A DNA stretch of 32,000 nucleotides from contig NZ_CP074694.1 of assembly GCF_018398935.1 (NCBI RefSeq), forward strand, positions 5,490,001 through 5,522,000. Direction: 5' to 3'. The notes below the pieces were generated by a model, which ran no database searches, was not told the DNA's origin, and saw only the letters and a program-made list of their open reading frames with translations. Below, one piece after another: positions 2 to 29,188 of the stretch (position 1 is the stretch's first letter; every line of letters starts with the position of its first letter). A program made the position numbers and the translations under genes. The stretch is from Telmatocola sphagniphila. GTDB taxonomy: Bacteria > Planctomycetota > Planctomycetia > Gemmatales > Gemmataceae.

Positions 2-1438
2 ATCGCCGCTACGGGGTTATACTTTCATTTTTTTCGCGACAACGGGTCGAAGAGTTCTAATAGTTTCAACGCGACTCCCCGGCAACTCTCCTGGATTCGA
101 ATCCTAGTTTGCCTGGCCGCTCTTCTGCTGACACTACTGGAAGACCTACCAAGAGTTGCAGAATTCCCTCGTGAATTCGGCGTGTCTTATGAGGCGACGG
201 AGTGGCTACTTCGCCTACCTGGCTATTCTCAGGTATTGGTCAGCCGGAGTTACCTTGCTTTACTCCAGTGGGCTACGTTCTTATTACTTTTCCTGGCCAT
301 GCTGGGTGTTTTTACTCGGTTCAGTCTTCCGCTGGCGGGACTCAGCTTCTTTTACCTGCAAGCGATTTTGCGTTATCATGCAATATCTTTTCACGAGGGC
401 GTCTTACCGATTTATCTGCTACTGATTCTGACTTTCACTCCCTGTTCCGAGGTTTGGTCGTTCGATTCCTGGTGGAGATCGCCCCGGCCTGCACCATCTT
501 CGCAAGCCGTTCGATTTAGTGTATTCCTGTGCTTTTTCGTTGTTGCCGCTGTCTATGTTTCTTGCGGATTCAGTAAGTTAGGCAATTCGGGTTTGAATTG
601 GTTGCAACCCGAAAACTTGGAATTCAAAATTCTCCGCGATGCTATGAATCCCCTCTTCTTCAGTGAATTTCGCAATCCGGCTATCTGGCTCCACAGACAT
701 GATGTACCCATTTTCAGTTACAGTCTAATAGGGATATTTACTGTATCAGCGGAATTGTCCTATATAGCAATCTTTTTTTCGAAGTGGGCACGGGTTGTGA
801 TTCCTATTTTGATTTTCAGCTTGCACACTGGAATCCTAGTTTTTCAGAGGATTTTATTTCTAGACTTGATGATTCTCCAACTCATCTTCATTAACGCGAA
901 CTGGTTAGCACTATGGGCTCGTCGAAATAAGGAAATTCCTCCAGATTCCGATAACTTCATTCGCATTTCGAAGCTGGAACATAGATCAGAAACGGCTTGT
1001 CCGAAGCAACGCCTAAGACTGCTGGCATTCATTGTGATTTCTGCGGGTATCTCCGCGGTTTGGATTTACAGGATCGAACGCTTCCCGTTGTCGGCGTGGC
1101 AGATGTACTCCGATGTTCAAGCTCGGATGCCGATCGTGTATTTTAAAGTGATGGCCACTCGAGAAAACGGTGAGATTGAGGAGGTCGATTCACATTTATT
1201 CTGTCGATCGGTTATGATCAACAGCTATATGATGCTTATCCCCTCTCTCAACTCGGAGCGTATGAGTACGCTAACTGAAGTCATTACGAATTACATTGAA
1301 AAAAGTAATAAGGCCTCGCCCCCAGAATCGCGAATTAAATGTATAGAAATCGAGAAATGGAACTGGGATTACTGGGAAGATCCGAAGAACCCAAATTGTG
1401 GAAAAATAGTCAATAGCTATGCGTTCTATGCAAAGTAA
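2..1438 (+). CDS. HTTM-like polytopic membrane protein; the 5' end runs off the window
   Basis: The frame of ORF 182..1438 stays open back to nt 2 with no in-frame stop and no ATG/GTG/TTG. The upstream translation reads ...PRQLSWIRILVCLAALLLTLLEDLPRVAEF..., so the true start is probably upstream of the window. There are many hydrophobic segments. Blocks such as MLGVFTRFSLPLAGLSFFYL and FHEGVLPIYLLLILTFTPCS recall the HTTM (vitamin-K-carboxylase-like) membrane domain. The family call is from memory. Confidence 0.45.
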   Translation: MAATGLYFHFFRDNGSKSSNSFNATPRQLSWIRILVCLAALLLTLLEDLPRVAEFPREFGVSYEATEWLLRLPGYSQVLVSRSYLALLQWATFLLLFLAMLGVFTRFSLPLAGLSFFYLQAILRYHAISFHEGVLPIYLLLILTFTPCSEVWSFDSWWRSPRPAPSSQAVRFSVFLCFFVVAAVYVSCGFSKLGNSGLNWLQPENLEFKILRDAMNPLFFSEFRNPAIWLHRHDVPIFSYSLIGIFTVSAELSYIAIFFSKWARVVIPILIFSLHTGILVFQRILFLDLMILQLIFINANWLALWARRNKEIPPDSDNFIRISKLEHRSETACPKQRLRLLAFIVISAGISAVWIYRIERFPLSAWQMYSDVQARMPIVYFKVMATRENGEIEEVDSHLFCRSVMINSYMMLIPSLNSERMSTLTEVITNYIEKSNKASPPESRIKCIEIEKWNWDYWEDPKNPNCGKIVNSYAFYAK

Positions 1439-11084: not shown

Positions 11085-11534
11085 TTACCAGATGCCCTGA
11101 ACGCGACTGAGAAAAATGCAGAGTACACGAGTCGCTTCGCGCATGTCGACAGGCACGACAAACTTAGTGCGTTCGTGAACCAGAATATTCCGATATTCTC
11201 GAACTTTATGAACTGCTTCCGCATCGGCCTGAGGTATCCGGCAACGATCCCGAACGCGGTTAATCAGCGGTTCCGTGCCTCTGGGTTTACGGATGTGAAA
11301 TGCTCGTATGAAGTGTTGAAGAGCGGTCTCAAATTCCGAGAAGATTCGAACGATATAGGTACCTTCCAGATGGGATGAGGCAGTGACGATATCTCTGCGA
11401 ATTATGCGATTTCCCAAGATCGCTGGATTAACAGTCATTTCCTCGAGTAGACGATCAGTTACAAAACGGATTGCACCATACTCGCGTTCCACGGCTTTGA
11501 TCCGCGTCATCCAGTCAAATGCTTCATTCAGCAT
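11085..11534 (-). CDS. HEPN-like protein (RNxxxH motif), second gene of a two-gene module
   Basis: 149 aa. The C-terminal third contains VHKVREYRNILVHERTKF, an R-x4-H motif of the HEPN type in the 'RNxxxH' flavour. An earlier acidic helix reads LEGTYIVRIFSEFETALQHF. The start ATG lies inside the last codons of the upstream gene, within the sequence ATGCTGAATGA. Confidence 0.5.
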   Translation of the reverse strand: MLNEAFDWMTRIKAVEREYGAIRFVTDRLLEEMTVNPAILGNRIIRRDIVTASSHLEGTYIVRIFSEFETALQHFIRAFHIRKPRGTEPLINRVRDRCRIPQADAEAVHKVREYRNILVHERTKFVVPVDMREATRVLCIFLSRVQGIW

Positions 11535-12189
11535 GGGCTTTCATCTCATCGAAGACCTTTCGAAGGCTTTCTTTCGTCAAAGGTTTTGCCTCTTCCTCGC
11601 GGGCTTTACCGTTATTGGAAGCTCTTTTGAATAGATAGTGGATGTGCCAGCGATTGTTATAAAAGTATAAATTGGCAATATCGTCGTAAGAAGGCATTAA
11701 GTAAAGGTCGACGACGCCTTCCGCACCCGGCGCGGTGCGCGCAATGGGCTCCAGAAACAGGCGAACTGTTTCATGCTGAAGCAGCAGTCCCGGAGCTTTG
11801 TAATTCCCGAGCTCCGCATCTTCGATTTTTTTATCCACTGTTTTAGTGGCCCAATCGAGTTCCTGAGCCCAATTCTTTACCGTCGCCACAAGCTTCCTGA
11901 GCTTCTCAAGCCACTCGAGTCTAATGCTGATTTTCTGCCGGGCGGCTGCCTCCAGCTCTCTCTGCGTTGATTCTTGTACAGGTCGATTAATCCATTTGAA
12001 ATTCGTTTCATTGGCATGATTCTGAACGGATACGATATACTGAGGCATCGCCTCCACAGTGGCCTTTTCAGTAGACGTGGGCCGAACCGCCTTAGGCACA
12101 AATGTGAATCGGAGTGCCCCATTCGTATCGGGATCCTCCAAAATATTCACACTGTACGAAGCTGCTTGCGTCGCGCTATTCTTCGCCAT
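11524..12189 (-). CDS. Hypothetical protein (221 aa), first gene of the HEPN-like module
   Basis: ATG at 12189 is preceded by a GAGGG Shine-Dalgarno-like sequence; the ORF track begins one codon earlier at GTG 12192. I recognise no domain. A central segment, RELEAAARQKISIRLEWLEKLRKLVATVKNWAQELD, looks like a coiled coil. It overlaps the downstream gene by 11 nt. Confidence 0.6.
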   Translation of the reverse strand: MAKNSATQAASYSVNILEDPDTNGALRFTFVPKAVRPTSTEKATVEAMPQYIVSVQNHANETNFKWINRPVQESTQRELEAAARQKISIRLEWLEKLRKLVATVKNWAQELDWATKTVDKKIEDAELGNYKAPGLLLQHETVRLFLEPIARTAPGAEGVVDLYLMPSYDDIANLYFYNNRWHIHYLFKRASNNGKAREEEAKPLTKESLRKVFDEMKAHAE

Positions 12190-12535
12190 CACACCCTCAG
12201 TCCAATGCCACTTCTGAAAACGACAATTCCGAAATCAAATGATTCCCTAACCAGTTGCTGTCCAAGTATTATAACCGATTTTCACATCGACGAAAGACGG
12301 TGTCCGAAGGAGGAGATTATGTGGGCAATCGGGCTCTCAAATCGAGCATTTTTCTCGAAGCTTCCCGCGATTTTGATTGCGATAACGACCAGATCGGCGA
12401 CAATCGCCTGGGAGGATGCTCCCTTGCCGATCACCAAAAATTTTCCCCCTTCTTGTCGATTTCCTTTCCCATCGTTCGACTAAACCAGGAACAGCGGGCA
12501 GATCGCCCGTGCAACGACTCGAATTTGGAGAAGCT

Positions 12536-14178: not shown

Positions 14179-14540
14179 AGTTACCTTGGCATTGTTCGAG
14201 CGACATTTTTTTGAAGCTAATCTGACGGTGAAAAAGTCGATGGTTTCTTCATTTCAGGAACAAGCTTCCAGGTTCAGTTAAGGTTTTTATTCTTAAGGAT
14301 CATTCGTGATCGAATCGGAGACGAGTCGATGGAACTCCTTACCTGACAAAGTGATACACGGTTTAAATCTTGTTCCAGTCTATTTACGAGATATAATTCA
14401 GTTCAGCAAAGTCATTGTTACCACAGTTCTTTCGACCGATGTCCTGGCTCTGATGAATTCGTCTATGACAATCGGAAAGATCGAATGATTGGCACAGTAA
14501 GACAATTTTCCGGCAGCGATTTTTGATTGGTTGAGATTTG

Positions 14541-15272
14541 ATGGCCCATTTTGACGATTATCACCGAACAGTGGTCGGTTACCATGGTACTAGTATTTCT
14601 TCGGCGTTGCGAATTGTAAATCGAGTTGAGAACTTCCGTCAGAGCGAAAGGGATTACGACTGGTTGGGAAGAGGGATCTATTTCTGGGAATATGGACCGA
14701 AACAGGCTCTGAATTTCGCGAGAATTCGTCAAAGGCAAGCGATAAATAAGAAGCATAAAACCTCGGGAGATCTCCGAAGAGCTACCGAACCTTTGGCCGT
14801 GGTTGCTTGCATGATACGGCTGGGATTTTGTCTAGACTTAACTGAACCTGAAAATGTAGAATATCTTGTAGCTATTTTCGATTCCTACAGGGAGTCGATG
14901 GAACTCGCTGGTGCTGAATTGCCCAAGAATCGGCATAAATACCGAAAGTTGGACTGTGCAATTTTCGAGTATGCCTACAAGGTCATCGAAGATTCCGAGT
15001 CCAATTTAACAATAGATACGGCCCGAGGCATCTATGTTCCTAGAGATGGAACCACTCGTATATGGCCGGGTAGCTGGATCTCTCGGGATACTCACATCCA
15101 GCTCTGTGTACGAAATCCGGCAAATTTGCTTGGAACATGGCTCCATTATCCGACCGGATTGGGGGTGAAGAATGTCTGTGAAGCGTTACAAGCTGGCGTT
15201 GCCGACCTCAAGTCAGAAGATTCGCAAAGCGAAAGCGAAGTTGAAGGGGATGAGTCAGCTCCGGAGAATTGA
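14541..15272 (+). CDS. Orphan protein with an H-Y-[EDQ] ADP-ribosyltransferase-fold-like (DUF3990-like) motif order and an acidic C-terminal tail
   Basis: 243 aa from ATG 14541. The ordered motifs are VVGYHGTS, then WLGRGIYFWEY, then THIQLCVRNP. The tail is SEDSQSESEVEGDESAPEN. G+C is lower than in the flanking genes. The functional call is tentative. Confidence 0.4.
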   Translation: MAHFDDYHRTVVGYHGTSISSALRIVNRVENFRQSERDYDWLGRGIYFWEYGPKQALNFARIRQRQAINKKHKTSGDLRRATEPLAVVACMIRLGFCLDLTEPENVEYLVAIFDSYRESMELAGAELPKNRHKYRKLDCAIFEYAYKVIEDSESNLTIDTARGIYVPRDGTTRIWPGSWISRDTHIQLCVRNPANLLGTWLHYPTGLGVKNVCEALQAGVADLKSEDSQSESEVEGDESAPEN

Positions 15273-17162: not shown

Positions 17163-18389
17163 GTGAACAGCGTTTTCCTTGCTGCCGCGGTAGTGCTGTC
17201 GATTCAGCCGATTCGAATCGAGCTCAAACAAAAAGCGACGTCGTTAGTGAAGCAGCTCGGGGATGGTTCTTTTCGCAAAAGAGAATCGGCGAGCAAGGAT
17301 CTAATCGTTCTGGGACTGAATTCCCGGGAAGCTCTGGAGGCTGGGGCAAAGAGTAGCGATCCGGAAATCCAGCAGCGTTGTAAATTACTGCGGGTCGAGA
17401 TGGAGAAGATGGAGTTGAATCGCCGGATTCGACAGTTCACGACCGACCCGATGGTTTCTCTGCCGGGCTGGAAAACGTTCAGCGAGAAATTCGGGTCCGA
17501 TGCATTGACCCGAAAAGTTTACGGACAGATGGCGGAGGTGGGAGGGGAACGGTTCGTATACTATGAAAGCGAGCCAGAAGGAGCGGCACGATTTTTTATT
17601 TCTGAATATCAGCGCCTTTCAGGAGAATTACGCAATTTAGACTATGATTTTAAGAAATTGATAGATGATAGAATAATATTGTTTTCAATATTATTCTATA
17701 TACTTCAATTAGAGAAAATGGAAGATCAAATTTCTCGTTCGGACCTATCCATTGTATTTAGTCTCGATTCAATGCCGATTACTCATTTAATACAGGGCGA
17801 GGCGCTGAAAATATTGTTGAGAGATAAACCGGAATCTCCAGTCTTCAAAAAGATTCTTCTGGGTTGGATGGGAAAAATTACAAACGACATAGCAATTCAA
17901 AGTTTGGGATACGATTTTGAATTATGTTTGATTCTTAATTCGCTAAGGGATAACAAATTGGATGAGGGAACAGAAATTATAAAAAAACTGTTAAAAGATC
18001 CCCGATTCGTAAAACAAAAAACTCAGACGAAAGGGTATGTTCTTCACGCTTTCGCAAACTTCGCTAAAAAACAAGACCTAAAAATATTTGAATCCTTTCT
18101 GAACGACGATTCTCGCACGACCGATCATCTCCTCGGAAATAACGGAAATCCCATTCAGTATCAGATTCAAACTCGCGATATTGCACTCGCTGCGGTTCTC
18201 CATTTAAATGGAGAAAAAATCGAGGATTATGGCTTCGATGGCTGGCGATTTGCCGACCAAGACGGAATAAACAATTCCATTGAGGTATTCAGTTTCATAA
18301 CCGAAGAAAACCGCAAAAAAGCCTTCCAGAAGTGGTACGATCTGAAAGAGAAGAAGGCCAAGGAATCGGCGCCAATGCCGAAGAAGTGA
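17163..18389 (+). CDS. Hypothetical protein, helical-repeat-like, with a sharply AT-rich central portion
   Basis: 408 aa with a GTG start preceded by GGGAG. It has a hydrophobic N-terminus, then LVKQLGDGSFRKRESASKDLIVLGLNSREALEAGAKSSDPEIQQRCKLL. I recognise no catalytic motif. Confidence 0.6.
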   Translation: MNSVFLAAAVVLSIQPIRIELKQKATSLVKQLGDGSFRKRESASKDLIVLGLNSREALEAGAKSSDPEIQQRCKLLRVEMEKMELNRRIRQFTTDPMVSLPGWKTFSEKFGSDALTRKVYGQMAEVGGERFVYYESEPEGAARFFISEYQRLSGELRNLDYDFKKLIDDRIILFSILFYILQLEKMEDQISRSDLSIVFSLDSMPITHLIQGEALKILLRDKPESPVFKKILLGWMGKITNDIAIQSLGYDFELCLILNSLRDNKLDEGTEIIKKLLKDPRFVKQKTQTKGYVLHAFANFAKKQDLKIFESFLNDDSRTTDHLLGNNGNPIQYQIQTRDIALAAVLHLNGEKIEDYGFDGWRFADQDGINNSIEVFSFITEENRKKAFQKWYDLKEKKAKESAPMPKK

Positions 18390-22748: not shown

Positions 22749-23150
22749 ATGAAAAAGTCACTGGTGTTGATGACTCTGCTATTTTTCGGTTCGTTTGCCC
22801 GGGCTCAGGAACCAGTCCTGGGCTCGAATTCATTGTCCGGCAGTTGGACAGGCACCTGGCTCAGTACCGACTCCGGCCATAAAGGTCCGTTGAAGGCCGA
22901 GCTGATCGACCAGGGCAACGGCGCTTATCAGGCCAAGTTTCGTGGGCGTTTTTTCGCAGTCATCCCGTTTCGCTACAACGTCACGCTGAACGTGGTGCAA
23001 CAGAATGGCAATCAAACGACGCTGGCCGGTTCTTCCCGGCTGCCGTTCTTCGGAACCTTCCAGTACTCCGCCGTTTCGGATGGCCAGAGCTTGAACGCCG
23101 AGTACACTTCGCGAAGCGACCACGGGCAATTTCAGTTGAGGAGGAGATAG
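22749..23150 (+). CDS. Small secreted hypothetical protein (133 aa)
   Basis: It has the signal peptide MKKSLVLMTLLFFGSFARAQE followed by a beta-rich body. Its 3' 209 nt are duplicated at 26596-26804. Confidence 0.7.
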   Translation: MKKSLVLMTLLFFGSFARAQEPVLGSNSLSGSWTGTWLSTDSGHKGPLKAELIDQGNGAYQAKFRGRFFAVIPFRYNVTLNVVQQNGNQTTLAGSSRLPFFGTFQYSAVSDGQSLNAEYTSRSDHGQFQLRRR

Positions 23151-23412
23151 GGGGCAATTTTCCACGCCGCCTTTTTGGATTGTCTTCGAAAAATTCAAAA
23201 ATCGAATCCGGGCTTTTTACGAAGTTCGAATAATTCTGGATAACTGGCATGAATTGCCAGCGAATATTGTGAAGTTTATGACGAAATGGCCAACGATTTC
23301 AGTCTCACCATACAAGTAGTTATTTCAGTGTATTGAGTGCTTTGGTAGCATTTTTTCTAATTTCTTCTGGATAAGATTCGCTCGTGAATTCTTTGCACAT
23401 TTTTTTAAATTC
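22942..23412. repeat. 471-nt direct repeat, copy 1
   Basis: It aligns to 26596-27066 at a constant offset of 3654 nt, and I count 9 mismatches. It covers the 3' part of the 133-aa gene, the spacer, and the last 31 codons of the minus-strand paralog. Confidence 0.95.
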
Positions 23413-23479
23413 GTTTAGATTATTCTTTTTTTTGCTGCATTCCATAATATAGGGCAGATAGAAGGATACTTGCACTAGG
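23320..23479 (-). pseudogene. Detached 3' fragment of paralog A, separated from its body by the IS insertion
   Basis: The reverse strand reads ...LVQVSFYLPYIMECSKKKNNLNEFKKMCKEFTSESYPEEIRKNATKALNTLK*. This is colinear with the C-terminus of paralog B (...YLPYISTSSINKIYYPEFKKMCKEFTSESYPEEIRKNANKALNTLK*). Confidence 0.85.
23474..23479. repeat. Target-site duplication ACTAGG, left copy
   Basis: The identical hexamer abuts the other IS end at 25336-25341. Confidence 0.7.
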
Positions 23480-25335
23480 CCTTAAAACAGCGTAGTTTTT
23501 TGGGGAATTGTTTCGATTTATCGAAGAAAGCTCGAAATCCTTTTTGTTTTCTGCGGTTTGTGTAAGTAACCGCTTAACAAATCGACAGTCGCAAAAAGGA
23601 GTTTCGAGTGAATGTTATTTTCGGACGTTGGTTTCAAAAATGCAAGAGTCGAATCGAACGTCGCCTGGCTAAGCGAGAGGCCGCGATGACCTTCGCTCCT
23701 TCTTTCGACGCCTCCAACATTCATTACGAAGTCTCCGAACGCGTGGGGGCGATCAGTTGCGGAGGCCTCGGGGCCATGCACCTTCTGGCCCGGCGTATCG
23801 GACTGATCGACGACATCGACGAGAAGCTGCATCTGCTCCAATTTCAAAGGCCTTACTCGGAATCGGACCACGTGTTGGCCATCGCTTACAATTCCCTTTG
23901 CGGGGGTACCTGCCTGCAAGACATGGAACTGCGTCGCACGGACGAAAACTTTCTCAACGCCTTGGGCACTCAGCGTTTTCCCGACCCGACTACTTCGGGC
24001 GACTTTTGTCGACGCTTCGATAGTGGCAGCATCCAGGCTTTGATCGACGCTTTCAACCAGACCCGTTTACGCGTCTGGTCGAAGCAACCCGATTCCTTTT
24101 GGGAATGCGCGAAGATCGACGCCGACGGCAGCTTTACCCAAACGCGTGGCGAGCGTAAAGCGGGGATGGACATCAACTATAACAGAGACTGGTGTTACCA
24201 CCCCCTGGCGGTGACCCTGGCCAACACCGGTGAGACGCTGAGCATCGTCAACCGTCCCGGCAATCGCCCTTCGCACGAAGGGGCCGCGGTCGAACTCGAC
24301 CGGGCTCTTTTGCTGTGCCTTCAAGCGGGCTTTCGCAGGATCGTCTTTCGCGGCGACACCGATTTCTCGCAGACCACTCGCCTCGACGGCTGGGATGCCA
24401 ACGCCAAGGTACGCTTTTATTTCGGCTACGATTCGAAGCAAAACCTCGAAGCAATCGCGGAAAAACTGCCGGAAGCGGCTTGGCACAAGCTCGAGCTGTC
24501 CCGCGCAATACTCGGCGAAAGCGAAGTTGCGACACCGACGGGAAAACACCAAGGAGCGGATCGTCCAAGAGCGGGAATTCGTAAATGTGAAGTTGATCTC
24601 CGAAGCGGTGGCCGAGTTCGAGTACCAACCGACCGCTTGCCGAAGGGCGTATCGCCTGGTGGTGATTCGCAAGAATCTTTCCGTGGAAAAAGGCGAATCC
24701 GTTCTGTATCCGGACGAACGCTATTTCTTCTACATCACCAACGACCGGGAGTGCACGGCCGCCGAAGTCGTCTACGAAGCCAACGATCGCTGCAATCAGG
24801 AAAATCTGATAAGCGCAGCTCAAGGGCGGTTGCCGGGCCTTGCACGCGCCGCTGCACGATCTGGAAAGCAATTGGGCGTACATGGTGATGGCCTCCCTGG
24901 CCTGGAACTTGAAAGCCTGGTGGGCCTTGACGTTGCCGGAAACTCCTGGTCGCTGGCGGGAAAAGCATCGGGACCAGAAGCAGTCGGTTTTGAAAATGGA
25001 ATTCAAAACCTTCCTCAATGCTTTCATGCTTCTGCCTTGTCAGATCGTCCGGAAGGCCGGCCGCATCGTCTATCGATTGCTCGGCTGGAACCCGCACTTG
25101 CCAATCTTCTTCCGACTACTGAAAGCACTGAGGTGCTGATCGTTCGACCGACTGAAGTCGGGATCCGGATGTCCCGATCCGATAAAACGCCGAGAGCTAT
25201 TCGCGGAAAGGAAGAATGTTTGAAAAATAGAAGTATGCGTTCGGCCGAGCGAAAAGCTCCGGCGTGGGGGACTCATCGAACTATCTCGCTAAAACTCCCC
25301 ACGGAATTGGCATCAAAAACTTCGCTTGTTTGAGG
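23480..25335 (+). mobile_element. IS1380-family-like insertion sequence (1856 bp)
   Basis: The terminal inverted repeats are CCTTAAAACAGCGTAGTTTTT (23480-23500) and the reverse complement of 25315-25335, CCTCAAACAAGCGAAGTTTTT; they match at 17 of 21 positions. ACTAGG direct repeats flank the element. It holds a single DDE transposase reading region. It interrupts an ORF whose two halves rejoin in frame. Confidence 0.85.
23608..25139 (+). pseudogene. IS1380-family (DDE_Tnp_1-like) transposase, disrupted by two +1 frameshifts
   Basis: Three consecutive frames carry the protein. Frame 1 runs from GTG 23608 to ...EAAWHKLE at about 24497. The next frame reads PAQYSAKAKLRHRRENTKERIVQEREFVNVKLISEAVAEFEYQP...YFFYITNDRECTAAEVVYEANDRCNQENLI to about 24810. 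The third frame reads AQLKGGCRALHAPLHDLESNWAYMVMASLAWNLKAWW...LLKALRC*. The sequence after each shift in the old frame is Arg-rich nonsense. Confidence 0.8.
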
Positions 25336-26345
25336 ACTAGGGGCGGGTACACAAATTTTTTATCCGTTTGATATAAATACCGATAAAGTTTTACTATGAA
25401 TTCGAGGTCAAAATCCATCGTAAAGACGCTACTGTTTTTATTGTGAGGATACTTAATGAGAGTCCACTTACCTTCACCTAGACTTGACGAAAATTTGCGC
25501 AGTTGAGATTGATCATATTCATTCTGACGATGCAAGGTATTTGCATAACAAAAAATTCTAATCTCTGAACTTGACCACTTTTTACCCATATTATTAGTCA
25601 TATATTCGTTAAGGAAATAAAAAGTGAAAGGATGAGATTTCGAACATGATTCAATAATATCTATGTAATTATCTTTAGAGGGCTGATTTAGGAAGTATTT
25701 CCAACGAGTGATGGACCATGTTGAGATATAATAATTATCTGAACCGATACCAGTTTTGAGCAATTCTAATTTGTTTCGTACGTTCGAGCAGGAGAATCTT
25801 GTAAGAAAATCCACAAAGGGGTTCACTTGACTTGAGACAATTAGATTGTCCTGCTCTTGAGTCTTATCATCGAAAAAGGTAGGGTACGGGCATATTGGGC
25901 ACCAAAGCTTTGACAGTTCATTTTTGGTAGTGATAGCAGAAACTTCCCCTTCAATATTCTCATTATTTTCTTTTATGAAAAAAATTCCGTAACCTCCGAT
26001 ATGAGGGTTTTTAATATACTCGATTCGAGAAGGATTATAATCGTATTTTGATATATCTGCGAAAAAAAAGGGGATTGTAGCAGTAAATGCTCGAACAATA
26101 AATTGTTTGTTTTGATATTTTCGATCACCTATCAAAACCTTCTCAACAATCAAAGTGCTTTTAAAAGTGCATGAAAGGTCGACTCTGCTGTACAGTTCAT
26201 CGTTTGGACGATCCGTTTGTCGATAGAATCTATCTGAAACCGTCAAGTATCTCCCAAGGACTAAAGTGACATCGGTTGGTATAATTTGCACAATATTACT
26301 AAAGAAAAGTATGAAGCAAGATTTTGCTAAAACTGTTGACAACAT
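25281..26345 (-). CDS. Paralog A of an unrecognised AT-rich protein family, 3'-truncated by the IS insertion (last 17 codons read into the IS)
   Basis: 354-aa ORF. It is colinear with paralog B, with roughly half the positions identical by eye. Shared blocks include VLGRYxxVSDR, DLSCTFKSTL, FIVRAF, AITTxNELxKxWCPIxPYP, YFLNE, GKWT and YLYQxDKxFxYPP. The tail LKQAKFLMPIPWGVLAR is encoded by IS sequence (25281-25335). Confidence 0.75.
   Translation of the reverse strand: MLSTVLAKSCFILFFSNIVQIIPTDVTLVLGRYLTVSDRFYRQTDRPNDELYSRVDLSCTFKSTLIVEKVLIGDRKYQNKQFIVRAFTATIPFFFADISKYDYNPSRIEYIKNPHIGGYGIFFIKENNENIEGEVSAITTKNELSKLWCPICPYPTFFDDKTQEQDNLIVSSQVNPFVDFLTRFSCSNVRNKLELLKTGIGSDNYYISTWSITRWKYFLNQPSKDNYIDIIESCSKSHPFTFYFLNEYMTNNMGKKWSSSEIRIFCYANTLHRQNEYDQSQLRKFSSSLGEGKWTLIKYPHNKNSSVFTMDFDLEFIVKLYRYLYQTDKKFVYPPLVLKQAKFLMPIPWGVLAR
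25336..25341. repeat. Target-site duplication ACTAGG, right copy
   Basis: It is identical to 23474-23479 and lies immediately outside the right inverted repeat. Confidence 0.7.
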
Positions 26346-26393
26346 AGGTTTTGTGTCTCGCTTTCTTTGAACTTCAAAATACCTAATTTAGTT

Positions 26394-26401
26394 GTGCCAT
26401 G
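26394..26401 (-). promoter_or_regulatory. Conserved upstream block (CATGGCAC on the coding strand), 49-56 nt before the paralog A start
   Basis: The same octamer sits at the same distance upstream of paralog B (28183-28190). A second shared block, TTTCTTT, lies 17-23 nt upstream of both starts. The surrounding sequence is diverged. Confidence 0.3.
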
Positions 26402-26595
26402 TTTTCAAAAGAACAACTGATGTAATGCGATTGCTGGCTTGGCATGAGTTGCCACTTAATTATTGTCATACAACAAAATTAAAGATGCGAAAAGATATTT
26501 TTGGAAATAGACAAATTACTGTATCCATCAGAGAGTGAACAAATCGATAAAGACGCTCTATTAACTCTGACTATGGCTATTTAGAATATTATACT

Positions 26596-26804
26596 GTGAG
26601 CGTTTTTTCGCAGTCATCCCGTTTCGCTACAACGTCACGCTGAACGTGGTGCAACAGAATGGCAATCAAACGACGCTGGCCGGTTCTTCCCGGCTGCCGT
26701 TCTTCGGAACCTTCCAGTACTCCGCCGTTTCGGATGGCCAGAGCTTGAACGCCGAGTACACTTCGCGAAGCGACCGTGGTCAATTCCAATTGAGGAGGAG
26801 ATAG
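26596..26804 (+). pseudogene. 5'-truncated duplicate of the 133-aa secreted-protein gene (last 68 codons only)
   Basis: It reads ...RFFAVIPFRYNVTLNVVQQNGNQTTLAGSSRLPFFGTFQYSAVSDGQSLNAEYTSRSDRGQFQLRRR*. An in-frame TGA lies at 26568-26570, and there is no ATG/GTG/TTG between that stop and the homology start. Confidence 0.85.
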
Positions 26805-27066
26805 GGGGCAATTTTCCACGCCGCCTTTTTGGATTGTCTTCGAAAAATTCAAAAATCGAATCCGGGCTTTTTACGAAGTTCGAATAATTCTGGATAACTG
26901 GCATGAATTGCCAGCGAATATTGTGAAGTTTTTGACGAAATGGCCAACGATTTCAGTCTCACCATACAAGTAGTTATTTCAGTGTATTGAGTGCTTTGTT
27001 AGCATTTTTTCTAATTTCTTCTGGATAAGATTCGCTCGTGAATTCTTTGCACATTTTTTTGAATTC
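26596..27066. repeat. 471-nt direct repeat, copy 2
   Basis: See copy 1. Confidence 0.95.
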
Positions 27067-28134
27067 AGGATAATAAATTTTATTGATACTACTTGTCGAT
27101 ATATAAGGCAAATATTCAGCCATCTGAATCACCGGGGGATATTTAAATTGTTTATCAACTTGATATAAATAGTGGTAAAACTTTATTACGTAGTCAAGAT
27201 CAAATTCCATGGAATAAGTGCTACTAGCTTTGTCAGGCGGAAATGTAACATGAGTCCACTTTCCTGACCCAATGCTATGCAGATATTTTCTAATCTCAGT
27301 TTGATCGCATTTTTCCTTTCTGTGGAGTGTGGCGATTTGGGATAAAACTCTAATATCGGATTTAGTCCATCGCTCTTTCGCTTGATTTGTGAGAAATTCA
27401 TTCAAAAAATAATATGTATGTGAATGCGCGGATGATAAGTTATTGATTACATCTTTGTAATTGTCCATACAAATATTATTTAGGAAGAACTTACGTTTTT
27501 CAATTGACCAACATGCTATGTAGAGATTTTGTGAAGTAGTTCCAGCTAATATCATTTCTAATCTGGATCTTAAATTTGAAGTAGAGTATTTTTTGACATG
27601 CTCTACGAAAGGTAGTAACTGACTTGATAAAATAATTTGAGCTTCATCTCTCGCTTTTTCATTAAATGCAATCGGGTACGGCAATATTGGACACCAAATT
27701 TTAAAAAGTTCATTTTCCGTCGTTATTGCTGAAATTTCATCACTTATACCTTCATTATTATCTTGCAGATAGAAAAGTCCGAGATCACCGATTTCGGGAT
27801 TCGAATCATACTTTAGTCGTAGAGGTTCATATATATATCTTGCGCTTGATCGGAATGTAGGACTCGTATTTGAGAATGCCCTAACTATGAAATTGCAATT
27901 TTGAAATTTAATATTTCCGGACAATATTTTATCAACTACAAGAGTACTTTTAAACGTACATGACAAATCAATCTTGGTATAAAGTGCATCTTGCGGACGA
28001 TCTGATCGCCTTTCAATTCTATCTGATACTTTTACATATCTCCCAAGAACAAATGTGACATTATTTGGAATGACTTGTAAAAACGTAGAAAAGAAAACTA
28101 TCAAATCAATTTTTATAATTGTAATCGATGCCAT
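26974..28134 (-). CDS. Paralog B of the unrecognised AT-rich protein family (intact, 386 aa)
   Basis: A long ORF in about 28% G+C DNA (hand count on one line). It has a short hydrophobic N-terminus, MASITIIKIDLIVFFSTFLQVIP. I recognise no domain. It is a paralog of 25281..26345. Confidence 0.75.
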   Translation of the reverse strand: MASITIIKIDLIVFFSTFLQVIPNNVTFVLGRYVKVSDRIERRSDRPQDALYTKIDLSCTFKSTLVVDKILSGNIKFQNCNFIVRAFSNTSPTFRSSARYIYEPLRLKYDSNPEIGDLGLFYLQDNNEGISDEISAITTENELFKIWCPILPYPIAFNEKARDEAQIILSSQLLPFVEHVKKYSTSNLRSRLEMILAGTTSQNLYIACWSIEKRKFFLNNICMDNYKDVINNLSSAHSHTYYFLNEFLTNQAKERWTKSDIRVLSQIATLHRKEKCDQTEIRKYLHSIGSGKWTHVTFPPDKASSTYSMEFDLDYVIKFYHYLYQVDKQFKYPPVIQMAEYLPYISTSSINKIYYPEFKKMCKEFTSESYPEEIRKNANKALNTLK

Positions 28135-28182
28135 GATGTAACTTACCAGATTTCTTTAAATATATCTGGGCATACTGTTTAA

Positions 28183-28190
28183 GTGCCATG
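28183..28190 (-). promoter_or_regulatory. Conserved upstream block (CATGGCAC on the coding strand), 49-56 nt before the paralog B start
   Basis: It matches 26394-26401 in sequence and spacing. Confidence 0.3.
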
Positions 28191-28342
28191 AAAAGCGCGT
28201 TCAATTTTGCACGTCAATTAGACCACAATGGAGTAGTATTATCATCCAAGATATTTGGTAAGTCAACAAAAAAAGTAGAGATTTTCACCAATTAAGAGTT
28301 CAGAAGCGTGAGAGCTTATTTTTGCTTTACTACCTCAAAAGT

Positions 28343-28371
28343 AAGATTTCAGCTCGTTGAACTGAAATCTT
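28343..28371. terminator. Perfect 10-bp stem hairpin (AAGATTTCAG-N9-CTGAAATCTT) with T-rich flanks on both strands
   Basis: The stem halves are 28343-28352 and 28362-28371. It is followed by CTATTTTG on the plus strand and by ACTTTTGAGG on the minus strand. It lies 36 nt downstream of the stop of the 62-aa minus-strand ORF and about 210 nt upstream of paralog B. Confidence 0.3.
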
Positions 28372-28406
28372 CTATTTTGCCCATTTGGTGACTCAATCTC
28401 GCTATT

Positions 28407-28595
28407 TTATCTGGCAGTCGTTAGTCTGGAAAAGATAGGTAATGGACTCCGCAGAATAGATAAGGCCAGTTCAACAGGGTGAACAATTACCCTCAAAAAA
28501 CTGCCATACTTTTCTGATTCCAAGGCATCGACATTCGTTCCATCGCTTCTGACAGCATATTCTCTAGATTTACCTATTTGCAAATTTATTTTCAA
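28407..28595 (-). CDS. Small hypothetical ORF (62 aa) at the right edge of the AT-rich islet
   Basis: The only support is the ORF itself and the downstream hairpin. There is no recognisable motif and no clear ribosome-binding site. Confidence 0.2.
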   Translation of the reverse strand: MKINLQIGKSREYAVRSDGTNVDALESEKYGSFLRVIVHPVELALSILRSPLPIFSRLTTAR

Positions 28596-28696
28596 ATCTA
28601 TCGTTAATCGCTCTACCCAACTAAAATATCCCCCTCCCGGCGGCGTCTCTATAACAGGGTTAGTGACCGAATCACAACCCCCGAGAGGTATTCATC

Positions 28697-29188
28697 ATGA
28701 CAGCAAAAGAAATCCTAGTCATCGACATGGACACGGCCACGTTCATACTCAACACCTACTTGAGCGACTTTACCGAAGCGGAAATGCTCAAACGGCCCGT
28801 GCCGCAGGCCAATCATACCGCATGGCAGTTGGGCCATCTGATCGCTTCAGAAAATGACATGTTGAGTGCTCTGACGCCACCTGCCAGCATCAGCCTCCCC
28901 GAGGGGTTTGCCAAACAGCACAGCAAGGAATCCGCCGGAAGCGACGATCCGGCCAAATTCCTGACCAAAGCTCAATATCTCGAATTGATGCAGAAAGTTC
29001 GCGCGGCGTCCAAAGAGGCTCTGGCGAAAATGACTGATGCGGATTTCAATAAACCGGGTCCGGACGCATTAAAATCCTTCGCGCCAACGCTCGGGGCACT
29101 GTTCAGCGTGATTGCTGGCCATCCGATGATGCACACCGGGCAGTTGGCCGTGCTGCGCCGGGCGCTCGGCAAGCCGATTCTGATGTGA
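28697..29188 (+). CDS. DinB-family (DinB_2-like) four-helix-bundle protein
   Basis: 163 aa. The His-containing helices are NHTAWQLGHLIASE and IAGHPMMHTGQLAVLRRALG, typical of the DinB superfamily. Confidence 0.8.
   Translation: MTAKEILVIDMDTATFILNTYLSDFTEAEMLKRPVPQANHTAWQLGHLIASENDMLSALTPPASISLPEGFAKQHSKESAGSDDPAKFLTKAQYLELMQKVRAASKEALAKMTDADFNKPGPDALKSFAPTLGALFSVIAGHPMMHTGQLAVLRRALGKPILM

Follow-up and report, generated by a model that had tools for sequence, protein, structure and literature searches.

Lactococcal Abi genes and the genes for Sie/Ltp-type proteins are single genes of markedly low G+C content, often orphan or membrane-associated, strain-specific and borne on mobile DNA. The e14 element of Escherichia coli K-12 is a 15-kb prophage. 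On its integration, the 3' end of icd is replaced by a new one, and 163 bp of the gene persist as a pseudo-icd fragment (PMC6379469). Previous studies suggest that ORFans tend toward a high A+T content and that many of them are genuine genes on which selection acts (PMC3514957), and that integrative elements represent a major source of them (PMC2718499). Here we analysed a stretch of 32,000 nt from Telmatocola sphagniphila (positions 5,490,001-5,522,000 of NZ_CP074694.1, a contig of 6.59 Mb), hereafter called the window, and describe an AT-rich islet located in it between a gene for a small secreted protein and a DinB_2 gene. The islet carries two homologous genes, A and B, on the same strand; A is disrupted by an insertion sequence (IS) and B is intact. 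Probably, the islet represents foreign DNA of small size that was acquired recently and has not been ameliorated, and its sole cargo is an ORFan gene present in two old, diverged versions.

The two genes conform to what is known of AT-rich ORFans with an origin in mobile DNA, and are unusual in the length of their proteins and in the well-preserved record of recombination around them. Like the ORFans of other AT-rich islets (PMC3514957, PMC2718499, PMC12315717), A and B are rich in A+T, restricted to a single genome, devoid of homologs, under purifying selection and associated with mobile DNA. They differ in that they are long (387 amino acids, aa), occur as two copies with 52% identity, and have no adjoining integrase or integrative-element remnant. 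The layout of the islet also resembles that of e14 in icd, where the target gene receives a slightly different 3' end from the incoming DNA, the truncated original is found at the far end of the insert, and direct repeats permit excision. However, e14 has its own integrase and leaves a 163-bp icd fragment, whereas the insert in the islet is about 1.8 kb in size (3.65 kb with the IS), contains a single gene, encodes no recombinase, and is associated with a 471-nt repeat. This repeat, termed R, includes part of the cargo gene, and this extension suggests homologous recombination rather than a site-specific event. As for stand-alone Abi and superinfection-exclusion proteins, A and B have no match in PADLOC or PHROG and no phage or plasmid context was found; the resemblance is a lead only.

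Composition and organization of the islet

From left to right, the locus consists of the 5' part of the small gene, the first copy of R (R1), the body of A, the region upstream of A, the second copy of R (R2), the body of B, the region upstream of B, and the DinB_2 gene (Table 1). The G+C content is 34.8% in the body of A (25341-26345), 32.6% in B (26974-28134), 32.8% upstream of A (26346-26595) and 36.8% upstream of B (28135-28620), and the lowest single 60-nt lines within the islet reach 25%. The window minus the islet has a G+C content of 52.7% (52.5 +/- 5.3% in 500-nt windows). Only two G+C-rich segments interrupt the islet, namely the IS (23480-25335, 54.8%) and a duplicated host segment (26596-26895, 51%). 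In addition, the G+C content at third codon positions (GC3) is 0.27-0.34 in A and B (0.27 in B), as compared with 0.53-0.75 in host genes.

An earlier note on this DNA had described a very AT-rich islet that stands out from its surroundings and is interrupted only by the IS and the host segment. The interruptions are as described, and the compositional foreignness is borne out by both the G+C content and the GC3, which lie far below those of the host. The contrast itself (33-37% against 52.7%) holds, but the value of 65% set against it in that note fits a single line of purL and not the background; purL is a gene with 59.2% G+C overall and 45-73% in its 60-nt lines.

Table 1. Features of the islet and its borders in the window.
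Feature	Positions	Strand	Evidence and remarks
Host gene KIH39_22035, small secreted protein of 133 aa, left flank	22749..23150	+	G+C 55.7%, GC3 0.70; 3' 209 nt inside R1
Repeat copy R1, 471 nt	22942..23412		Small-gene 3' part, 169-nt spacer, final 30 codons of A with the stop
3' piece of paralog A, from about codon 336 to codon 387 and the stop	23320..23479	-	Translation, tblastn
IS1380-family insertion sequence inside A	23480..25335	+	1856 bp; terminal inverted repeats; ACTAGG duplication; match of transposase to hidden Markov model
Paralog A, 5' piece	25336..26345	-	Annotated as truncated 354-aa KIH39_22050; opens with the other copy (6 nt) of the target duplication
AT-rich upstream region of A	26346..26595	-	Far end (26595/26596) an illegitimate junction with the middle of a small-gene copy
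Repeat copy R2	26596..27066		Truncated small-gene fragment (26596-26804), spacer, final 30 codons of B with the stop
Paralog B, intact, 386 aa	26974..28134	-	KIH39_22060, QVL31503.1, hypothetical protein
AT-rich non-coding region upstream of B, right islet edge	28135..28640	-	G+C content; no third copy of R; Rfam and tRNA scans empty
DinB_2-superfamily host gene, right flank	28697..29188	+	Pfam PF12867, E = 4.8e-17; G+C 55.5%

Genes A and B

The annotated 354-aa open reading frame (ORF) of A (25281-26345) continues for 10 codons into the IS. The final 52 codons of the gene are found at 23320-23478, and they join in frame with 25342-26345 once the IS is removed. Removal of the IS together with one copy of the target duplication restores A as an uninterrupted frame of 387 codons, so that the two same-strand paralogs of 387 and 386 aa reported earlier were reproduced. 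The A and B proteins align from end to end in BLASTP (203 of 387 residues identical, or 52%; 74% positives; one gap; E = 6e-157), in accordance with the estimate by eye that about half of the residues are identical with essentially no gaps. The conserved blocks quoted in the earlier note are present, except that the 'VIK' of B reads 'IVK' in A. Within the last 30 residues the two proteins differ at one position only, and this C-terminus is indeed almost invariant. However, it lies within the recombination tract R, and pS (the proportion of synonymous differences) is 0 over codons 361-387; the near-invariance is therefore attributed to recombination rather than to functional constraint.

With 0.075 stops per codon expected at this composition, the chance of an open frame of 387 codons is P ~ 9e-14, and such a frame occurs twice. 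No ORF longer than about 50 aa is present on the opposite strand. The differences between the two genes are distributed over codon positions 1, 2 and 3 at frequencies of 0.38, 0.27 and 0.58. By the Nei-Gojobori method, the proportion of nonsynonymous differences (pN) is 0.29 against a pS of 0.72, and the corresponding distances are 0.37 (dN) and above 2.4 (dS); the synonymous sites are thus saturated while the protein is conserved. Based on the improbability of the open frames, the lack of a long antisense ORF, the codon periodicity and the low pN relative to pS, A and B are real genes kept under purifying selection.

A and B each stand alone, at a distance of 250-500 nt from the nearest feature and each with its own upstream region. 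No partner ORF is present beside them, and no further paralog remnant was found elsewhere in the window. The regions upstream of A and B show no significant overall similarity, and motifs in register occur only in the ~60 nt next to the start codon. The 8-mer CATGGCAC is common to both genes at about -56, in register (26395-26402 and 28184-28191, minus strand), and a TxAAAGAAA block is common to both at about -25. The two motifs may represent a shared promoter or operator. A reading of TGGCAC in the upstream motif as a sigma-54 promoter was rejected, because the -12 GC element is lacking.

Searches for relatives of A and B

Single-sequence and two-sequence profile searches of 5.8e9 protein clusters at E <= 10 returned only A and B themselves, and phmmer against 1.84e9 representatives found only the paralog. 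Pattern and tblastn scans of GTDB genomes, JGI metagenomes and IMG/VR were negative, an exact DNA pattern from the conserved 3' end retrieved nothing from IMG/VR, and tblastn gave no match among 50,697 phage records and none among plasmid records. Pfam, which was also run on the N- and C-terminal halves separately at E <= 10, gave no match for A, and its best match for B was PF21655 (L544_NTransf) with 16 bits against a cut-off of 27. No match for either protein was obtained with NCBIfam, or with PADLOC-DB 2.0 at E <= 1. Among PHROGs, the best E values were 0.11-0.39, all of them to families of unknown function, and a sequence profile search of the PDB found nothing at E <= 10. Structure prediction did not extend these results. 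AlphaFold2 with the two-sequence alignment gave unusable models, with a predicted local distance difference test score (pLDDT) of 36 when B was placed first and 33 when A was placed first; a Foldseek search of the PDB with one of these poor models gave no match at E <= 0.001 and is meaningless.

The statement of the earlier note that no family could be recognised agrees with these searches, in which no significant match was obtained outside the genome itself. As judged from sequence comparison, A and B constitute a true orphan family without a detectable relative in any of the public collections searched, and may be classified as ORFan or lineage-restricted genes in a horizontally acquired islet.

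Repeat R and the small secreted-protein gene

The two copies of R show 98.1% identity, with 9 mismatches in 471 nt. Each extends over the 209 nt at the 3' end of the small gene, the convergent spacer and the end of A or B. When the two units were aligned without gaps and without the IS, 59-60 of every 60 nt were identical across R, and the identity then fell sharply to 30-45 of 60. The fragment of the small gene in R2 starts inside codon 65 of that gene and directly follows the AT-rich upstream DNA of A (26595/26596), which represents an illegitimate junction. Folding of the convergent spacer was no better than that of shuffled sequence.

Five of the nine mismatches are clustered within 14 nt (23122-23135) at the end of the small gene. 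Four of these five fall on third codon positions (P about 0.045), and they comprise one His/Arg codon and three synonymous changes. The fragment 26596-26804 retains Arg where the full-length gene has His, and the orthologs from Zavarzinella and from metagenomes mostly have Arg. This mismatch pattern, together with the Arg residue, suggests that the two copies of R are two functional alleles of the host gene, and not a gene and its decaying duplicate.

On inspection by eye, KIH39_22035 starts with a sequence like that of a signal peptide (MKKSLVLMTLLFFGSFARA-QE). Zavarzinella formosa has an ortholog with 58% identity, and others were detected on three short assembly or metagenome contigs. The protein belongs to no Pfam family; it has the invariant core RFFAVIPFRY.V.L.V and represents a small, uncharacterised family of Gemmataceae. 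The Z. formosa ortholog, the sole one located in a long contig, lies in an unrelated and uniformly GC-rich context with no AT-rich islet adjoining. These data support vertical inheritance of the host flank and, as had been supposed, the accessory status of the islet. Because the context of the Zavarzinella ortholog is completely different, an empty site could not be defined, and pattern scans with the small gene found no close relative.

The insertion sequence in gene A

The IS is bounded by imperfect terminal inverted repeats of about 21 nt (CCTTAAAACAGCG... and CCTCAAACAAGCG...) and flanked by a direct duplication of ACTAGG at 23474-23479 and 25336-25341. Its transposase region (23608-25139) matches the NCBIfam model transpos_IS1380 (NF033539) with E values of 5.3e-45, 6.1e-12 and 3.2e-11 in three frames. 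These matches span model positions 9-415 and, being split over three frames, each stay under the full-length cut-off. The transposase also matches Pfam DDE_Tnp_1_4. By these features the element can be assigned to the IS1380 family, with which it shares the transposase match, the terminal inverted repeats and a short target duplication. It differs in that the transposase is distributed over three frames and that the apparent target duplication is 6 bp, whereas that of the IS1380 family is usually 4-5 bp.

Two further transposases with at least 90% identity are present in the T. sphagniphila genome, and the annotated lengths of the three are 352, 426 and 574 aa. The existence of further near-identical copies indicates a resident, multi-copy element. 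The first frameshift in the transposase (near 24500) is common to all three genomic copies; it could be programmed, or tolerated, or result from systematic homopolymer sequencing errors in the assembly. Since A has no other lesion, the insertion seems to be recent, and the last or nearly the last event at the locus. The association of the islet with an IS and with a recombination scar, pointed out in the earlier note, is thereby substantiated in the form of an IS1380 element and a 471-nt repeat.

Origin and history of the islet

The synonymous sites of A and B are saturated, yet their GC3 remains at 0.27-0.34 as against 0.53-0.75 in the host, suggesting that the two genes diverged outside this genome. 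Their divergence would have taken place in a donor pool of AT-rich DNA, for which mobile elements or phages of this lineage that have not been sampled are the most likely candidates. The original locus would have had the order small gene-R-B. The incoming A unit would have consisted of a copy of the repeat (R'), the body of A and 250 nt of upstream DNA, about 1.8 kb before the arrival of the IS. As this unit carries R', it would stem from a related chromosome or element in which the same junction was present beforehand, and because of the shared junction A and B would behave like extremely divergent alleles of one locus.

The A unit would have entered by a single crossover within R, for instance when a circular fragment was inserted in the Campbell manner, or in a comparable one-ended event with homology at one side and an illegitimate joint at the other. 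The present order of segments is the one expected if a molecule with R', A and its upstream DNA recombined in this way with a resident small gene-R-B locus. By this event the small gene would have gained a new 3' end, and its old 3' end would have been displaced as the fragment 26596-26804. A has been knocked out by a resident IS1380-family element, probably as the last or nearly the last step. Through recombination between the direct repeats of 471 nt, the locus should be able to lose the A unit again. Homologous recombination is favoured over site-specific recombination, because no integrase and no third copy of R are present and the repeat is long enough for RecA. Repeat R seems to mark a recent recombination that placed A beside B, although we infer the direction and mechanism from geometry alone.

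Alternatively, the orphan gene and 209 nt of the host gene might have been duplicated in place in ancient times, with repeated gene conversion subsequently homogenising only the 471-nt 3' block. Such a tandem duplication would be in keeping with the arrangement of A and B, which are tandem, same-strand and colinear; moreover, the left edge of the identical block would be the duplication junction, and at the right edge the identity stops abruptly, as conversion tracts do. However, long residence should have shifted the GC3 to the host range of 0.53-0.75, and the GC3 of A and B stays at 0.27-0.34 despite a pS of 0.72. In addition, a useless fragment of the host gene would need to persist throughout, and the mismatch cluster in R resembles coding-constrained divergence and not decay or homogenisation. 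We therefore regard an in-place duplication as rather improbable. The paralog diversification mentioned in the earlier note is unlikely to have occurred at this site in view of the synonymous saturation and the unameliorated GC3.

A recent acquisition from outside is thus preferred, and several points weigh against it. No donor, related strain or empty site could be detected, genes for an integrase or another mobility function are absent from the islet, and neither a third copy of R nor another att-like repeat was found at the right border of the islet. The circular intermediate is hypothetical. The argument from amelioration presumes that synonymous sites drift to host composition, and the excess of third positions in the mismatch cluster rests on five changes. 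Finally, ORFans are usually short, whereas A and B are long.

Protein features and possible function

The A/B protein has a mass of about 45 kDa and is basic (K+R 50 versus D+E 41). In both proteins the best 19-residue Kyte-Doolittle window is N-terminal (means 1.76 and 2.02) and represents the sole strongly hydrophobic stretch, as the mention of a short hydrophobic N-terminus in the earlier note implied. The N-terminus has one Lys only, and neither an AxA site nor a lipobox; that of B has Lys and Asp within the hydrophobic stretch. No internal repeat was found in A or B. A helical C-terminal half is the sole point of agreement between the two low-confidence AlphaFold2 models.

Several readings of the conserved blocks were tried and rejected. 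By eye, motifs for nucleotidyltransferases, PD-(D/E)xK, HEPN, HUH and Walker A were incomplete or differed between A and B. For a nucleotidyltransferase fold of the Pol-beta type, both proteins have L-G-R-Y and a single Asp in (I/V)-D-L-S, and not hG[GS] and [DE]h[DE]h. For tyrosine or serine recombinases, DDE and HUH enzymes there was no Pfam match at E <= 10, and the sole H-x-H (HSH in B) is not conserved in A.

On the basis of the foreign composition, the stand-alone layout, the strain restriction, the hydrophobic N-terminus and the tolerated loss of one copy, it is conceivable, if still short of probable, that A and B encode a stand-alone accessory protein derived from mobile elements, which would act at the envelope in an exclusion- or defence-type conflict and not in housekeeping. 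Such a protein might consist of a hydrophobic N-terminal segment resembling a signal or anchor, an undefined N-terminal half and an alpha-helical C-terminal half. The function is the weakest step of the overall explanation. Against this guess, which has only composition, stand-alone arrangement and a hydrophobic N-terminus behind it, it must be said that the N-terminus of B with its Lys and Asp could be a buried strand, and that neither defence-model matches nor defence-island neighbours were found for A and B. PADLOC on the neighbouring ORFs produced only two marginal matches, elsewhere in the window. The earlier note had gone further and proposed an undescribed system of defence, conflict or surface variation. 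Such a system is still conceivable but is not supported, as the genes stand alone without partners, have no PADLOC or PHROG match and are surrounded by ordinary host neighbours.

Another explanation is that A and B belong, as strongly diverged members, to an enzyme or fold family already known, such as nucleotidyltransferase-fold, nuclease or Abi-type proteins, which are hidden from sequence methods. Many 'hypothetical' families fall into known folds given a good structure. Furthermore, B weakly matches the Pfam L544 nucleotidyltransferase domain (E = 0.011, residues 210-269), and the block VLGRY..VSDR..(I/V)DLS is loosely like the hG[GS]...DhD motif. However, the L544 match has 16 bits versus 27, lacks a counterpart in A, and falls on a helical portion of the model and not on the catalytic motif. 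It was treated as a chance match, since it is below the cut-off, confined to B and away from the catalytic motif. In the similar block, Gly is followed by Arg, and there is only one acidic residue (in D-L-S). The PDB profile search and the Foldseek search on the unusable model, as given above, were likewise empty. A hidden known fold therefore has a small but real chance of being correct, and cryptic membership in a known fold has roughly the same likelihood as each of the other specific alternatives for the function of A and B.

A more elaborate version of the envelope proposal is doubtful at present. A and B could be the first two sampled members of an unrecognised, stand-alone, envelope-associated exclusion or defence family, carried on unsampled planctomycete mobile elements, whose extremely divergent alleles would be swapped between strains via a conserved 3' recombination handle.

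It might also be supposed that A and B represent a new site-specific recombinase, and that each gene forms by itself a minimal self-integrating element, which inserts at the 3' end of the small gene and brings a replacement for it, as phage integrases do at icd and tRNA genes. The geometry equals that of e14 in icd, where the target gene likewise gains a 3' end and the displaced one lies beyond the insert (PMC6379469), the gene lies directly at the repeat, and the protein is basic and of integrase-like size. However, A and B have no match to the recombinase and transposase families searched for above, the His-Ser-His of B is not conserved in A, and a third repeat at the right border, expected from tandem integrations, is lacking. 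The identical tract of 471 nt is ample for RecA-dependent recombination, and therefore no dedicated enzyme is needed. A novel self-integrating recombinase is thus highly unlikely. As far as sequence can show, the notion that the two frames are chance ORFs in junk AT-rich DNA, or that an assembly artefact joined two alleles, is already refuted by the codon-periodic substitutions, for although the frames have no homologs, an open frame of such low probability occurs twice, pN is well below pS, the IS has a clean target duplication with the frame restored on its removal, and the junction 26595/26596 would exist in neither allele alone.

Neighbouring genes and other observations in the window

The gene on the right of the islet was labelled dinB in the earlier note. 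It belongs to the DinB_2 superfamily and does not encode DNA polymerase IV. It overlaps the start of a gene for the ATPase of an ATP-binding cassette (ABC) transporter, which matches MacB/LolD-type models. The surrounding genes of the window are ordinary and include purL and genes for prephenate dehydrogenase, an AraC regulator, DUF417 and RibD_C proteins. Two surface proteins of PATR/PEP-CTERM type are also encoded, in addition to the DinB_2 protein and the MacB/LolD-type ABC transporter. Scans of the window for tRNA genes and Rfam families found neither.

A perfect 10-bp hairpin (AAGATTTCAG ... CTGAAATCTT) is located at 28343-28373, about 210-240 nt upstream of B, with no Rfam match and no obvious role. 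Outside the islet, three ORFs have a lower G+C content and no Pfam, NCBIfam or PADLOC match, namely 17163-18389 (+), 182-1438 (+) and 11524-12192 (-), with 43%, 45% and 49% G+C, respectively. The segment 17501-18000, with 35.8% G+C, is the minimum of the window outside the islet and may be further foreign DNA. Moreover, a 244-aa ORF with 47% G+C (14538-15272, +) matches the catalytic domain of exotoxin A weakly but consistently (PF09009, E = 4.9e-4; exotoxin A chains in the PDB, E about 0.2-0.5, residues 10-95), and matches PADLOC PD-T4-9_A with E = 1.4e-3. It may be an accessory gene of ADP-ribosyltransferase-like type.

Significance

Without function, partners or relatives, A and B do not yet change any view, nor do they make a long-standing question accessible to tests. 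They represent a long, selectively maintained protein family that is invisible to searches of about 15 billion public proteins. Meanwhile, the islet would record an order of events, from the acquisition of foreign DNA through recombination within a 471-nt flank to knock-out by an IS. It provides a concrete example for the debate on the origins of bacterial ORFans, and may offer a possible entry point to the almost unknown mobile elements and phages of Planctomycetota.

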